A program made the position numbers and the translations under genes. The notes under the pieces are model-generated. The model saw only the letters and a list, made by a program, of their open reading frames with translations. It ran no database searches and was not told where the DNA came from. A DNA stretch of 64,000 nt from Candidatus Sericytochromatia bacterium. GTDB taxonomy: Bacteria > Cyanobacteriota > Sericytochromatia > S15B-MN24 > UBA4093. Numbering within the stretch: position 1 is the stretch's first letter; each line of letters starts with the position of its first letter. The stretch is from positions 8,096 through 72,095 of the forward strand of contig JAKFBU010000047.1 of the NCBI GenBank assembly GCA_036676985.1, written 5' to 3'. Positions 13,131-18,481 of the stretch are shown here, piece by piece.

Positions 13131-14954
13131 ATGGCTGACAACATCAACCTTTCGGGCAACCGCGCGAGCACGGGCCGTCTCGGCTCCCTCTCGCAGACGG
13201 GTCGGCTCGACCCCGCCGCCCTCAATCAGGCGGCGCCTCCGGCCGAGGGCATCGTCAAGAAGGCCAAGACCGACACGTTGCGCCTCAGCGACGCCGCCGG
13301 GGCCGCGAGCCCCGTGGACGCCGCGGGCGTCCGCGACCTGGCCGAGAAGGTCGGGGCGGTGCAGAACGAGCAGAAGCAGGTCGCCGAGCTGCAGGCGCGC
13401 ATCACCTCGCTGGTGCCGGGCGGCGTCAAGTTCGAGACCACCGACGGCGCCAGCTGGTCGTCGACCGAGCTCAAGAATCTCCAGGAGGTCGTCGAGGGCA
13501 TGTCCCCGAGCGATCGCCAGGCCCTCTCGGGCATGAACTTCGTCCGCGCCGGCAAGGTGGACCTCGCCGAGGGGGCGGACGCCTCTGCCAACAAGCATCT
13601 GGGCGAGGGCTTCGCTGACGAGGGAGCCGCCGCCGTCGCCAAGACCCAGGGCGAGAGCAAGGGCATCATGGGCCGCCTGGGCGAGTTCGCCCGCCACTCG
13701 GCCGAGGTGCTAGAGGGCATCCCCGTCCTGCGCTACATCGGTCGGGCCCTCAAGAGCCTCTTCGGCCAGCAGGCCCCCGAGCGCGCCATCGTGTTCGGCA
13801 ACTCGGGCTCGCTCATCTCCAAGCAGATCTGGGCCCATGAGATCGGCCACCAGGTCCAGATGGTCAACCGCGGCTGGAACCCCGAGAAGATCGCGGAGTT
13901 CGCCAAGCTCTCCGGCTGGACCGAGACCTACGGCGGCAAGCAGTACGGCGCGGACGGCGTGGACAACCGCACCGGCGGGCGCCTGCTCTTCGACGAGCAG
14001 GTCCTCAAGTCCGCCCGGACGGACAACTTCGTCTCCAAGTACGCCATGACTAACCCCACCGAGGACTTCGCGGAGAGCTACCAGGCCTTCCTGAGCGACC
14101 CCAAGAAGCTCATGGAGCTTGCTCCCGAGAAGTTCCTGTTCATCAACGCCCAGTCGCAGAAGTACAGCGCGAGCGAGGTCAAGGGCTACGCCCAGCAGGT
14201 TGGCCAGGATCTCGACGCGGTGGCCACCGAGCTGACGCTCAAGAGCGGCCTCAAGCAGGAGACGTTGAACGCCGTCCTGATGGTCAACGGTGTGTCGCCC
14301 GACAAGGGTGCGCTCATCTCCGAGGCGGCCTCCAACCTGTCGTCGGGCGATGCCCTCAGCCAGGCGTGGGCCAAGATCGCGACCGACGCCAAGGATCCCC
14401 AGGCCGCCGCGCGCCTCGTCTCGGATCCGGCGGGAGCCCTGGGCGAGGTCTGGGGCAAGCTGAGCCGCGAGGAGCAGGCGCTCGTATCGGATCCGAAGTT
14501 CCTCCAGGCCCGGGTCGACGAGTTGCAGGCGGGCTTCGCGAGCTACCGCTCGTCGGCGGACGCCGCCCAGACCGAGCTCTATCGCAAGGGGATCTCGAGC
14601 CTGATGGACCGCCTGATGAACGATCCGGCCAGCCGCCAGTCGGCCGCCCAGGCGCTGCAGGGTCTCACCCTGCCCGCCGAGGTGGTGGAGGCCTTCACGA
14701 GCAACCCCGGAGCCTTCGCCAAGCTCGGCGCCGAGCTCGGCGCCCTCCTGGACAATGCCTCGGCCGAGGAAAAGCAGCGCTACGGGCAGAACCTCAAGAA
14801 GGCCCTGCCGCAGCTGGGTCCCGAGCACTTCTCGGCCCTGGCCATGGCGCTCAACAACAAGCAGGATGAGGCCTTGGCCGCCAAGATGATTCGTCAGGGC
14901 TTCGAGACCGGGTCGGTGGTCTACCAGGGCGGTGGCGATCCCCCGGGCATCTAA
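13131..14954 (+). CDS. 607-aa protein with zinc metallopeptidase motif and helical C-terminal region
   Basis: HEIGH (aa 236) plus FVSKYAMTNPTEDFAES (E311); low-complexity N-terminus without Sec signal; GGAGG SD. Confidence 0.75.
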   Translation: MADNINLSGNRASTGRLGSLSQTGRLDPAALNQAAPPAEGIVKKAKTDTLRLSDAAGAASPVDAAGVRDLAEKVGAVQNEQKQVAELQARITSLVPGGVKFETTDGASWSSTELKNLQEVVEGMSPSDRQALSGMNFVRAGKVDLAEGADASANKHLGEGFADEGAAAVAKTQGESKGIMGRLGEFARHSAEVLEGIPVLRYIGRALKSLFGQQAPERAIVFGNSGSLISKQIWAHEIGHQVQMVNRGWNPEKIAEFAKLSGWTETYGGKQYGADGVDNRTGGRLLFDEQVLKSARTDNFVSKYAMTNPTEDFAESYQAFLSDPKKLMELAPEKFLFINAQSQKYSASEVKGYAQQVGQDLDAVATELTLKSGLKQETLNAVLMVNGVSPDKGALISEAASNLSSGDALSQAWAKIATDAKDPQAAARLVSDPAGALGEVWGKLSREEQALVSDPKFLQARVDELQAGFASYRSSADAAQTELYRKGISSLMDRLMNDPASRQSAAQALQGLTLPAEVVEAFTSNPGAFAKLGAELGALLDNASAEEKQRYGQNLKKALPQLGPEHFSALAMALNNKQDEALAAKMIRQGFETGSVVYQGGGDPPGI

Positions 14955-14963
14955 GGAGCAACG

Positions 14964-15923: not shown

Positions 15924-15946
15924 CCCGACAGGAGAGAATCACGGCG

Positions 15947-18481
15947 ATGCCCAAGTCCAACCGGCCCCTCACCTGGGCCTTCAATGCCCTCATCGTGGCG
16001 TGCCTCGCGGTCTGGATCGTGGCGGTCGCAGGCTCCTTCAAGCTCCTAAACCAGCCGTTCCCGGGCTTCCGGGTCGAGACCACGCTCACCATCTCGGCCC
16101 TGGGCGATCCGACGTGGACCGGGGCAACCGCCAAGGTCCAGCAGTTCGATCGCTTGCTCGAGGTGGACGGACAGGAGCTCCGGGTGGCCGACGACCTGAC
16201 GCGTCACGTGCGCTCGGTGCCGGTGGGCACTCCGCTCGCCTACGAGGCGGTGCGCGCCGGCAAGCCCGTGTCCTTCACGGTCCCGACCCAGACCTTCACG
16301 CTCGGCGACTGGGTGCGCAGCTTCCTGCCCCTCTTCCTGGTGGCCTTGCTGCACCTGCTGGTGGGGGCGATCGCCTTCTGGATGAAGCCCGGCAGCGTCT
16401 CGTCGCGGGTCCACCTGCTCATGAACGCGGCGACGGGCCTCTTGTGCGCGCTCATCAACGACTACGACGCGGGCCACCAACTCTCGCGCCTTTACCTCGC
16501 CTCCATGCCCCTGATGGGTAGCGCCTACCTGCACCTGGGCCTGGTCTTCCCGGACTCGCCGCACTGGCTCAAGAAGCGCCCCTGGCTGCATGGCCTTCCC
16601 TACCTGCCGGTCTTGCTCCTGGTGCCCGTGTGGGAGGCCGTCTACCGCCCGGTCGGGTTCGCGGCCAACCGCGAGAGTTTCGACCTGCACATGAGCTTCC
16701 AGGATCTGGGGGTGCTCTGGATCATGGTGGGCCTGTTGGCCCTCATCCTGAGCATCGTGGTGCGCGCCGTGCGCACCAAGGCGGCCCTGGCCAAGCAGCA
16801 GATCAAGGTGGCGCTCTTCGGGGCGGCCTTGGCCTACCTGCCCGGCGCCATCCTCTGGATCGTGCCGTACCTGGCCAACGTTAACTCGCTGGACAGCTCC
16901 GGCATCCTGGTCAACCTCTCCTTCGCGTGCTTCGTCTTCTTCCCGCTGTCGATCGCCTATGCCATCGTCCGGCACAAGATGTTCGACATCGACCTGGTCA
17001 TCAAGCGCACGGTCGTCTACGCGACGGTGGTCGCCGCCCTGACGGGCGTCTACTTCCTCACCATCGCGGGCGTGACCTGGACCGTCGAGCGGCTGTTCGG
17101 CACCTCCGGCAGCACGGCCGGCAACATGCTCGCCACGGCCATCGTCGCCCTCGCCTTCGTGCCCGTCCGCAACCGCACCCAGTTCGTCATCGACCGGCTC
17201 TTCTACCGAAACCGCTACGACTTCCGGAGCGTACTCAGCGGCTACACCCGCTACACCAAGGAGAACCCGGAGCTCGAGGCGGTGGTGGACCAGTACGTGC
17301 AGGTCGTCACCGAGACCATGCACCCGCGCCACATGTCGATCATGGTGCGCGATCCCAAGACCATGGCCCTGCACGTCTACAAGACGTCTGGCCTCTCGGT
17401 CTTCCCCGAGGAATTCGCCATCCCCTCCGACAGCCCGGAAGTGGCCGAGCTCTTCCAGTCCCGCAAGACGGGCATGCGCCCCTCCAAGGCCACCACGCGC
17501 CAGCTCTCGCACATGGACGCGTTGGGCATCGCCTTCTGCGTGCCGCTCGAGATCAAGGGCGAGATCCTGGGGATGATCAACATCGGGCAAAAGCTCTCGG
17601 AGCTCGACTACACGGCCGAGGACCAGCAGCTGCTCATCAACATGGGCCAGCAGCTCGCGAGCGTCATCCGCATCAACGAGATGACCAAGGCCGAGGTCAA
17701 CCGGGCCCGGCTCGACGCCGAGCTCGAGACCGCCCGCCACATCCAGGCCTCCTTGTTGCCGACCGCGGCCCCGGCGCCTCTGGGCCTCGAGGTGATGGGC
17801 TCCTCGGAGTCCGCCTACGAGTTCGGCGGCGACTACTACGACCTGGTCACCCTGCACGACGGGCAGCTGCGCGTGGTGGTGGGCGACGTGGCGGGCAAGG
17901 GCGTGCAGGCGGCCATGGTCATGGCCATGGCCAAGAGCTGCTTCTTCAACCAGGTGCGCACCAACCCGGACCTGCCCACGGTCATGCATGCCATCAACAC
18001 CATGATCGTCGAGACCATCGACGACAAGAAGCACCGCAAGACGTCCCTCATCTACGCGGCCATCGACCCCGACCAGAAGACCCTGCGCTACACCTGCGCC
18101 GGCCACCAGCCGCCGCACTACTACAGCGCGGCGACCGGCCGGGTCGAGGAGCTGCCCATCCCGGGTTCCTTCCCCTTCGGCGCCTCCAAGCTCGCCAAGT
18201 ACCAGGAGGTGACGGTCCCGCTGCAGACGGGTGATGTGCTCGTCTTCTACACCGACGGCATCACGGAGGCCGAGAACCCGGATCACGAGATGTTCTACCG
18301 CATCGACGAGGGCCCGGACGGCGCCGAGATCGTGCACGACCAGCTCCGGACCGTGCTCGAAGCGAGCCACGCCGAGAGCGCCCATGACATCCATCGGCGC
18401 ATCCTGCGCGCCGTCAGCGCGTGGGTGGACGGAGGTCCGCAGGCGGACGACATCACGCTGGTGGTCGTGAAAGTCCTTTAG
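15947..18481 (+). CDS. PDZ + multi-TM + GAF-like + SpoIIE/PP2C phosphatase sensor
   Basis: TM, PDZ-like (DRLLEVDG), about 8 more TMs, YAIVRHKMFDID, GGDYYD, GDVAGKG, YTDGITE, DDITL; start ATG 15947 after AGGAG. Confidence 0.9.
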   Translation: MPKSNRPLTWAFNALIVACLAVWIVAVAGSFKLLNQPFPGFRVETTLTISALGDPTWTGATAKVQQFDRLLEVDGQELRVADDLTRHVRSVPVGTPLAYEAVRAGKPVSFTVPTQTFTLGDWVRSFLPLFLVALLHLLVGAIAFWMKPGSVSSRVHLLMNAATGLLCALINDYDAGHQLSRLYLASMPLMGSAYLHLGLVFPDSPHWLKKRPWLHGLPYLPVLLLVPVWEAVYRPVGFAANRESFDLHMSFQDLGVLWIMVGLLALILSIVVRAVRTKAALAKQQIKVALFGAALAYLPGAILWIVPYLANVNSLDSSGILVNLSFACFVFFPLSIAYAIVRHKMFDIDLVIKRTVVYATVVAALTGVYFLTIAGVTWTVERLFGTSGSTAGNMLATAIVALAFVPVRNRTQFVIDRLFYRNRYDFRSVLSGYTRYTKENPELEAVVDQYVQVVTETMHPRHMSIMVRDPKTMALHVYKTSGLSVFPEEFAIPSDSPEVAELFQSRKTGMRPSKATTRQLSHMDALGIAFCVPLEIKGEILGMINIGQKLSELDYTAEDQQLLINMGQQLASVIRINEMTKAEVNRARLDAELETARHIQASLLPTAAPAPLGLEVMGSSESAYEFGGDYYDLVTLHDGQLRVVVGDVAGKGVQAAMVMAMAKSCFFNQVRTNPDLPTVMHAINTMIVETIDDKKHRKTSLIYAAIDPDQKTLRYTCAGHQPPHYYSAATGRVEELPIPGSFPFGASKLAKYQEVTVPLQTGDVLVFYTDGITEAENPDHEMFYRIDEGPDGAEIVHDQLRTVLEASHAESAHDIHRRILRAVSAWVDGGPQADDITLVVVKVL

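Follow-up and report, generated by a model that had tools for sequence, protein, structure and literature searches.

In a stretch of 64,000 nucleotides from Candidatus Sericytochromatia bacterium (assembly GCA_036676985.1, contig JAKFBU010000047.1, positions 8,096 to 72,095; hereafter the window, numbered from its first letter), a member of a non-photosynthetic sister lineage of the cyanobacteria, we found three tightly spaced genes that code for a peptidase-like protein (H), a prenyltransferase-like enzyme (Q) and a membrane receptor phosphatase (S). We propose that they form a signalling unit in which Q would act on H, or on a piece of H, and in which the product would control S; judging from the sequences, we give this reading a probability of about 0.5. 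The cassette appears to be lineage-specific and a relative of the prenyl-peptide systems of the ComQ/ComX and StheQ/StheX types: what makes up a ComQ/ComX/ComP-like or StheQ/StheX-like system seems to be present in full, in a rearranged form. The features discussed below are listed with their coordinates in Table 1.

The arrangement of the three genes is conserved. By tblastn, 7 of 9 stretches from related genomes have H, Q and S in this order, the other two showing only Q, near a contig end; in the closest loci (L013-L015) the identity is 72-77% for S, 65-81% for H and 49-57% for Q. An alignment scan of species-representative genomes with Q yielded 15 loci. Nine of these have the order H-Q-S, three have Q followed by an H-like protein (H') and a sensor phosphatase S', one has S-Q, and in two Q lies near a contig end; linkage to H and/or S is thus seen in 13/15 loci, and the triplet, for which a preliminary description of this DNA had suggested a synteny search, proved to be conserved. 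In one further genus a very divergent Q of 231 aa (motifs DDLQD and SD) stands between H and S. A profile of H gave matches in 37 of 401 sampled genomes of the phylum; every one of these belongs to the window's class, and the remainder of the sample gave none; by family, H was present in 6/9 (f1), 1/1 (f2), 8/8 (f3), 8/8 (f4), 13/13 (f6), 0/1 (f5) and 0/6 (f7) genomes. The 15 loci are labelled as Sericytochromatia-type, as 'Cyanobacteria bacterium UBA...', with a cyanobacterial genus or family, or just as 'bacterium' (four loci). The titles of two of them (L037, L042) name filamentous cyanobacterial genera or families, yet the loci group with the Sericytochromatia-type ones, and the labels may not reflect lineage.

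The gaps of 9 bp (H-Q) and 23 bp (Q-S) reported in the preliminary description were verified, and the spacing is equally tight or overlapping in seven orthologous loci. No comX-sized gene fits into it, and the claim that there is no room for one held in every orthologous locus examined. The spacers of the cassette contain no small open reading frame (ORF) with a Trp codon, the only small ORF on the forward strand being one of 24 aa with a TTG start and no Trp. Nor did Pfam scans of nine neighbouring genes reveal a response regulator, in line with what had been stated before.

The second line of evidence concerns the active site of Q. Q matches the Pfam profile polyprenyl_synt (PF00348) with 65.1 bits, in an alignment that begins only at profile position 40, and scores 17-60 bits against the synthase equivalogs of NCBIfam, for which the cut-offs are 275-600; the ComQ family is absent among its NCBIfam matches. 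Its AlphaFold2 model (predicted local distance difference test, pLDDT, 93.8) has the all-alpha trans-isoprenyl-diphosphate-synthase fold and superposes in Foldseek on a geranylgeranyl diphosphate (GGPP) synthase at a template modelling score of 0.80 and on the indole prenyltransferase Ord1 at 0.78-0.82 (GGPP synthase and Ord1 hits together, 0.78-0.83), and because both values are near 0.8 the fold does not separate a GGPP synthase from a prenyltransferase function. The motifs are more telling. Q has the ComQ-type motif changes that the preliminary description had seen: the first Asp-rich motif (FARM) is intact, and NDTYE stands in place of the second Asp-rich motif (SARM). Among 34 Q-family sequences, residues D80, D83, D87, G144, Q145, D148, K169, Q207, D211 and D223 are invariant and D84 is nearly so. 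The first position of the second motif in Q orthologues is N, S or T within the order and G in relatives from the class, and never D. According to the available part of a review (PMC5331326), ComQ keeps the first Asp motif and requires NDxxx or GDxxx, and an N-to-D exchange drastically lowers its activity. Having no Asp at position 1, Q carries a pseudo-SARM of the ComQ type; the states S and T of its orthologues lie outside those tested in the literature. For StheQ, the partially available preprint (bioRxiv 10.64898/2026.08.29.745113) gives D85/D89/D91, D153, K174, Q212, N215, D216 and D219 as functional residues, and the counterparts in Q are D83/D87/D89, D148, K169, Q207, N210, D211 and E214, at an offset of constantly five residues beyond the first motif (taken from the preprint's numbering, not from an alignment).

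The same genome carries two canonical synthases (198 and 192 bits), both of which show GGKR/GKS-IRP, RRG after the first motif and FQxxDDLLD; Q has none of the three. A profile of the Q family scores its peptide-associated relatives at 82-168 bits vs 46-50 bits for the genome's canonical synthases, and in a tree the 2 canonical rows are split from 20 pseudo-SARM rows with a support of 98/96, the two outgroup rows being long branches. Q groups with the pseudo-SARM proteins and not with the chain-elongating synthases; a grouping with the latter was among the points that the preliminary description had named as speaking against its proposal. Based on the motifs, we consider the name polyprenyl synthase, which automatic annotation gives to Q, untenable.

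The relatives of Q point in the same direction. An exhaustive search with the Q profile gave 468 cluster representatives at E values up to 1e-30; for ten representatives of the wider family whose cluster members were listed, the names are automatic synthase names only, and relatives of Q are called 'geranylgeranyl diphosphate synthase' or 'polyprenyl synthetase family protein' by their sources. We aligned Q with the best 150 of the 468 and counted, among these 151 proteins, SD in 104, ND in 18, GD in 13, TD in 5, DD in 7 and other states in 4, so that 144/151 lack the Asp; the first motif reads DDxxD in 100 and DNxxD in 43. A metagenome scan with 34 of these representatives yielded 20 loci, mostly short. 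In 14 of them an NHLP-clan peptide gene directly adjoins the Q relative, as it does in 11 of the 17 loci that lie outside the training set of the free-peptide hidden Markov model (HMM), which was built from five small ORFs flanking the Q-like genes of three loci. The peptides (L061-L079) are 65-82 aa long, frequently occur in two tandem copies, and five of them score above the cut-off of NF038399 (47-66 bits). Those of L072, L074 and L079 have 65-66 aa, end in SFWH, YWWH or YWWHQ and are encoded directly 5' of an ND-type Q-like gene. In L064 and L065 the next gene codes for a protein with cyclic-nucleotide-binding and PqqD-like elements and an M50/daptide-type intramembrane HExxH protease. In L074 the peptide and the ND-type Q-like gene are followed by a gene for a 996-aa multi-transmembrane-GAF-HisKA-HATPase kinase; this is a ComX-ComQ-ComP-like arrangement. 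By sequence, the pairing of pseudo-SARM enzymes with 'Os1348-type' NHLP peptides hints at a large undescribed class of peptides that are made by the ribosome and then modified after translation (RiPPs).

The third line of evidence is that the leader-like part of such peptides appears to recur inside proteins of the H family. The preliminary description had placed a 607-aa HExxH protein first in the cassette, and the motif is indeed present (HEIGH). In 42 family sequences E237, H240, W263, Y304, D312-F-A-E315, Y317 and W441 of H are invariant and H236 is nearly so, and the family gives weak matches to Pfam zincins (Peptidase_Mx in 35/42, Mx1 in 33/42, M90 in 23/42 and ATLF in 23/42); the window's H scores 16 bits against ATLF (E 0.01), for which the cut-off is 27.4. 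The best structural hits of H in the Protein Data Bank (PDB) by Foldseek are the Pro-Pro endopeptidases PPEP-1 and PPEP-3, which are weak (E 0.9-5 and template modelling score 0.46-0.50, the top hit having E 0.94 and a probability of 0.66). A PDB sequence search with H alone gave one insignificant match (E 0.24), the two top matches of an H profile against the PDB, both non-significant, were the nitrile hydratase alpha chain and an NHLP leader peptide, and an Atlas search with H gave leads below 0.9 only. All 49 homologues are unannotated or 'hypothetical' except for two named 'putative zinc-binding metallopeptidase', and where the source is labelled, it is a compost metagenome or a metagenome genome that is either of the Sericytochromatia type or labelled as cyanobacterial.

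In NCBIfam, 40/42 members of the H family match NF038399 ('Os1348 family NHLP clan protein'), 40/42 match TIGR04509 and 27/42 match TIGR03793; Frankia_peptide of Pfam is found in 17/42. Among nine members scanned individually, the NHLP match lies at ~487-540 in eight and at ~440-484 in one (P0080), and it exceeds the curated cut-off of 40 in two, both close relatives (P0039 with 41.0 and P0042 with 43.4 bits). An HMM made from ten of the free peptides matches all 42 H members, mainly at ~480-550 of the family numbering, and reaches residues 485-504 of the window's H, weakly (E 1.8e-4 in the set of 42 sequences). A TIGR03793 search of the window's own genome gave no match, and the controls were equally silent. 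We also considered whether W441 of H corresponds to the Trp of the 'DW' in the free peptides, and rejected this since the HMM alignment places it elsewhere.

H is predicted to be cytoplasmic, with a short Gly/Pro tail after a helical C-terminal domain. Its AlphaFold2 model (pLDDT 74.3) comprises a mixed alpha/beta domain that contains HEIGH and an all-helical domain at 347-593 (pLDDT ~90), with disorder at 1-62, 143-215 and 601-607. In 16 close homologues, from which one N-truncated sequence had been dropped, no other of the 607 positions varies as much as the last residue of H (3.03 bits, 9 residue types), the penultimate residue ranks 9th, and the Pro before the pair is invariant. Two ideas on the tail were abandoned. 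Cleavage of its Pro-Pro by a Pro-Pro-endopeptidase-like H is kept as a lead only, PP being missing in several clades and the structural match being weak; a Cys-based CaaX-like or Rab-like site was dropped as Cys occurs in some tails only. At the other end of the protein, residues 1-30 (13131-13220) keep the pattern M-A-D-x-(I/L)-N ... T-G-(R/P)-L across clades that are <30% identical overall, and this motif could serve in recognition, secretion or phosphorylation; H' proteins begin with MNLDGL(S/T)GP. In locus L035 (G018 contig C4, 2670-11413) one Q and one S come after three H paralogues in tandem, of 607, 584 and 585 aa; all three have HExxH, and their ends read PGM or IGM.

S has the build of a receptor. 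From the receptor of transmembrane (TM), PDZ and multi-TM parts that had been described earlier, TM1 and the multi-TM block were confirmed, and the PDZ domain is suggested by weak HMM matches together with Atlas neighbours: in S itself only a DegP-type PDZ of NCBIfam is found (E 0.075-0.14), a feature search of the Atlas with residues 1-430 returns PDZ-bearing clusters at 0.97 and 0.93, and PDZ_2 matches one orthologue and one paralogue of S at E 1e-4. The Atlas neighbours include a cluster with HisKA_7TM in 12% of its members, a PrsK-type membrane and GAF region matches S at 52 bits, and residues 211-478 align with the membrane region (162-420) of the L074 kinase at E 4e-13. The GAF/SpoIIE output of the preliminary description is borne out by Pfam, and the metal motifs of PP2C (GDYYD, GDVAGKG, YTDG and ADDIT) can be read in the sequence. 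Among family-level relatives the identity is 50-64% in the input half of S and 80-100% in its GAF-PP2C half. The window's genome has four paralogues of the input module.

The partner-switch cascade suggested earlier as the output is plausible, and further loci support it well by their context. In L043, L046 and L051 a STAS protein of 115 aa and then an RsbW-like protein of 152-161 aa are encoded directly ahead of Q, which is followed by an H' of 983-1228 aa and an S' of 497-517 aa with TM and PP2C parts (L043 in Pfam: STAS 75, HATPase_c_2 105, polyprenyl_synt 54 and SpoIIE 142 bits). H' shares residues ~297-516 of H (hhalign probability 98.6), and the S' sensors consist of TM, GAF and PP2C parts only, with no PDZ. 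In the window's own genome a paralogue of S with the same full architecture (31% identity) adjoins a STAS gene and an RsbW-like gene. Across the genome, STAS is matched 8 times and an RsbW-like protein is matched strongly at least 5 times; the window contains neither a STAS nor an RsbW-like gene.

Put together, the mechanism could work as follows. Q would be a prenyl-diphosphate-binding transferase that performs no chain elongation and that transfers a prenyl group, with H or a piece of H as the probable acceptor. H would be the partner of Q and would most likely serve as its substrate or supply it: an NHLP-clan leader-like segment, which elsewhere is a free peptide gene of 65-82 aa, appears to be embedded in H beside a zinc-peptidase-like domain, and H may cleave itself or its product. 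S would be the receptor that senses this product, its PDZ/multi-TM/GAF input resembling that of the sensor kinases in peptide-Q-kinase cassettes, and its SpoIIE/PP2C domain would dephosphorylate a STAS-domain antagonist and thereby operate a partner switch. A fuller, extracellular and kin-specific version can be drawn, in which the embedded leader presents the tail of H to Q, the peptidase of H frees a lipidated fragment, the PDZ/multi-TM part of S reads the exported fragment and the output runs through PP2C, STAS and RsbW in place of two-component signalling; we consider this version unlikely.

A number of observations weigh against the proposed signalling unit. The NHLP-clan segment of the H family is weak in the window's copy: the window's own H gives no NHLP match in NCBIfam at E values up to 10, thus staying below every threshold, and has a 4-residue gap inside the motif in the alignment. 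The segment is moreover part of a well-folded helical domain (pLDDT ~90) and, judging from the model, may be structural rather than a leader. There is no Trp in the last 160 residues of H, and to our knowledge ComQ-family enzymes modify Trp only. In more distant clades H ends in PPCM, PPCC, PGGxx, PGG or GGG, the tail of distant orthologues being cut down to GGG or GGGG, and H' proteins have no HExxH, so that a peptidase activity cannot be general in the wider H family. Neither Q nor H has a signal peptide, and the cassette encodes no exporter. The partners also occur apart: two genomes that have other Q loci contain H-S pairs without Q (gaps of 127 and 393 bp), in family f6 the Q-like genes, which are of the GD type, have neither H nor S beside them in five loci, and same-architecture paralogues of S exist without H or Q. 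A complex prediction for Q with full-length H scored 0.00 in both runs, with the controls unfolded too, and thus speaks neither for nor against binding.

Several of these points would suit our main rival explanation, an accessory role inside the cell. RsbQ with RsbP is a precedent for an accessory protein of a phosphatase, and by analogy Q might make or bind an isoprenoid ligand or report the prenyl-diphosphate pool, and H, as a regulatory scaffold or protease, might act on the cytoplasmic GAF-PP2C part of S; there would be neither secretion nor a signal between cells. The missing signal peptides and exporter, the H-S pairs without Q, an H' that without HExxH suits a scaffold, the S' sensors without PDZ and the position of the NHLP-like segment within a folded domain would all be accommodated. 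However, Q relatives pair with free peptides in 14/20 loci, joined by a membrane kinase in L074, which points to peptide substrates and not to small-molecule ligands, and the hypervariable tail of H would have no obvious role. We therefore see an intracellular accessory as an alternative to be taken seriously, though on balance unlikely.

The NHLP-clan matches of H, and the NHLP peptides and RiPP-type intramembrane HExxH proteases with a PqqD-like element that adjoin Q relatives, could also indicate a natural-product cluster, in which H and Q make a modified peptide (an antibiotic or effector) and S merely regulates production. Yet no transporter, immunity gene or further maturase was detected in the cassette or the nine scanned neighbours, C39-type transporter domains being present only on other contigs of the genome. 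The strongest conserved link is that of H with S, and STAS and RsbW-like genes join in three loci; both fit signalling better than production, and a RiPP cluster strikes us as improbable. It is similarly improbable, if anything a little more so, that H and Q are themselves outputs of a partner switch, controlled by the RsbW-like or STAS protein, with S as nothing but the upstream phosphatase. Some partner switches are known to act on targets that are not sigma factors, and the order STAS, RsbW-like, Q, H', S' does put Q and H' inside a partner-switch operon in three loci; most cassettes, the window's included, have no STAS or RsbW gene nearby, however, and co-inheritance is with the sensor and not with the switch proteins. 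That Q is an ordinary polyprenyl diphosphate synthase placed between H and S incidentally has become hardly credible, for although it passes the PF00348 threshold, has relatives named as synthases by their sources and cannot be told from GGPP synthases by its fold, it lacks GKR, RRG and the first Asp of the SARM, falls far short of the equivalog cut-offs and is linked to H and/or S nearly throughout, and two canonical synthases are encoded elsewhere in the genome.

How far does the proposed signalling unit resemble known systems? The ComQXPA system of Bacillus consists of the Trp prenyltransferase ComQ, the pre-peptide ComX, the membrane kinase ComP and the regulator ComA. In both, the enzyme has the isoprenyl diphosphate synthase fold, an intact FARM and a pseudo-SARM of the form NDxxx, its gene lies in a tight operon with that of a multi-TM receptor on the same strand, and the putative substrate encoded next to it has a fast-evolving end. 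In contrast to ComQXPA, the cassette has no small ComX gene, histidine kinase or response regulator, its output is a PP2C phosphatase, and the putative substrate H, with 607 aa, contains a peptidase-like domain and lacks a Trp close to the C-terminus. The host moreover belongs to the Cyanobacteriota, and Q and S are likened to ComQ and ComP by description, not by sequence; in the available part of a 2014 census, comQXPA-like loci were reported from Firmicutes only (PMC4008528).

Outside the Firmicutes, the available text of the StheQ preprint describes one enzyme-peptide pair in Chloroflexi, StheQ/StheX of Sphaerobacter thermophilus, with StheX being a peptide of 69 aa whose Trp is second from the end (bioRxiv 10.64898/2026.08.29.745113). 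Like Q, StheQ combines a FARM with a pseudo-SARM and has its functional residues at near-constant spacing, as far as the preprint gives them, and the free peptides with WH or WHQ ends next to Q relatives (L072, L074, L079) are StheX-like by description. Unlike StheQ, which has DExxD and NDxxD, Q has DDxxD and NDxxE, and the window has no StheX-type peptide; the available text names no receptor for StheQ. PalQ/PalX of Paenibacillus alvei likewise unites a prenyltransferase of the isoprenoid-synthase superfamily with a precursor that has an NHLP-type leader (PMC10853753); PalX, however, is small with a C-terminal Trp, there is no sensor, and PalQ forms a cluster of its own far from ComQ (PMC10853753). 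With NHLP/Nif11 leader precursors H shares a Gly-Gly(-Gly) ahead of a variable C-terminal end, and its family, though hardly the window's own copy, shares the matches to NHLP-clan models. These precursors are, by the accessible part of the source, ~80-120 aa long with a core of ~26 residues and are linked to C39-type ABC exporters (PMC2887384), whereas H is far longer, has only 4-5 residues after the Gly run and no exporter nearby. On the output side S resembles RsbU, RsbP and SpoIIE in its SpoIIE-family PP2C domain with intact metal motifs, its preceding GAF domain and the STAS/RsbW-like genes in variant loci and beside a paralogue; it differs from them in the TM-PDZ-multi-TM input and in its accessory genes, a prenyltransferase-like one and a peptidase/NHLP fusion. 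A literature search found no link of Sericytochromatia with ComQ, nor, among the papers listed, of prenyl or NHLP terms with partner switches, with the limit that supplements (Figure S1 of the StheQ preprint, the network and tables of PalQ) may list Q relatives; for NHLP paired with polyprenyl it gave a genome-mining survey only, in which no such cassette is described.

Table 1. Coordinates of the cassette genes and of the features discussed in the text (nucleotide positions in the window; residue numbers refer to the respective protein)
Feature	Position	Strand	Residues or size	Basis and remarks
Gene H	13131-14954	+	607 aa	ATG start; ORF read and homologues
Gene Q	14964-15923	+	319 aa	GTG start; ORF read and Pfam PF00348
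Gene S	15947-18481	+	844 aa	In-frame ATG inside longer open frame 15176-18481
H: HEIGH zinc-binding motif	13836-13850	+	236-240	Conserved across family
H: downstream motif Y304...EDFAES	14040-14078	+	EDFAES 311-316	Alignment
H: NHLP-clan leader-like segment	14583-14735	+	~485-535	Family-level NCBIfam matches
H: C-terminal tail QGGGDPPGI	14925-14951	+		Conserved GGG(D/E)PP and two hypervariable residues
Q: FARM, D83-D84-A-Q-D87-H-D89	15210-15230	+	DDAQD 83-87	Intact first Asp-rich motif
Q: pseudo-SARM, Q207-M-L-N210-D211-T-Y-E214	15582-15605	+	NDTYE 210-214	In place of second Asp motif
S: TM1		+	11-29	Sequence
S: PDZ-like outer domain	16064-16306	+	~40-120 (~90 residues)	Weak HMM and Atlas matches
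S: multi-TM block	16322-17167	+	~126-407	About nine hydrophobic segments
S: GAF (GAF_3)	17273-17668	+	443-574	Pfam
S: SpoIIE/PP2C	17858-18475	+	638-843	PF07228, 149 bits, 2-191 of 192 positions
Upstream motif TTAATTGTCCGTTAAAA	13019-13035	+	17 nt	Core invariant in 6/6 aligned orthologous spacers
Perfect inverted repeat	18494-18525	.	14 nt, 4-nt GAAA loop	Sequence read

The spacer 5' of H (154 bp) is AT-richer and contains a GGAGG ribosome-binding site (13120-13124) 7 nt ahead of the ATG. The preliminary description had assigned to the cassette an upstream promoter region of its own; the spacer holds the conserved 17-nt motif, and no promoter of the sigma-70 type was detected in a scan of 12700-18900. 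The motif is followed by CCATAAC (13061-13067) and GCATAAT (13092-13098), the conserved form being CCATAAC and GCATAA; the genome has no second site for it at up to 2 mismatches, and 7 sites, itself included, at 3 mismatches. We infer that it is a promoter or operator. In the window (13019-13098) as in orthologous loci, GTCCGTTAAAA is followed 25 nt later by CCATAA(C/T) 5' of H, and GTCCGTTAAAA with the same 25-nt spacing also occurs 5' of two or more further genes in this genome (contigs C70 at ~9109 and C53 at ~19471). The element may be an alternative-sigma promoter or an operator, and may mark a small regulon.

The perfect hairpin reported downstream was verified as well. It sits between S and a convergent KGG-repeat stress gene and has no T-run; its role as a terminator is putative, and a scan of 12700-18900 detected no intrinsic terminator. 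A search of 12500-19200 against Rfam, at E values up to 1, gave a single chance match to a miRNA and nothing else. The stress gene (18539-18841, reverse strand) codes for a 100-aa KGG/LEA_5-repeat protein and is a neighbour of S in two related genomes (L013, L018). On the other side, a 311-aa gene (12041-12976, forward strand) gives a sub-threshold match to D12-class adenine methyltransferases (21.6 bits vs a cut-off of 22); it is kept 5' of H in the closest family (52-88% identity), not in the other cassette-bearing families.

A second neighbourhood with a peptide and a sensor was observed in the same genome (L060, contig C38, 47000-60000). It starts with an M50 peptidase, a 73-aa NHLP-clan-like peptide ending in AAGG-SC (NF038399 28 bits) and a radical SAM/SPASM enzyme, continues with a hydantoinase-like protein, a Zn-ribbon protein and an S paralogue (PDZ-GAF-SpoIIE), and ends with a 383-aa protein that has a squalene-hopene-cyclase-type repeat domain (31.6 bits), followed by STAS and RsbW-like genes.

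If the cassette works as proposed, it would extend the ComQ-type principle to the cyanobacterial phylum, beyond the Firmicutes and the one pair in Chloroflexi. A receptor module of the peptide type would then be wired to a partner-switching phosphatase, and H would be the first case of a substrate leader built into a large protease-like protein. The cassette is a concrete candidate input for membrane-bound phosphatases of the SpoIIE type. Moreover, the pseudo-SARM is found in hundreds of proteins that bear the name of a GGPP or polyprenyl synthase, and in the loci inspected such proteins adjoin NHLP-clan peptides, which points to a mis-annotated enzyme family worth mining.

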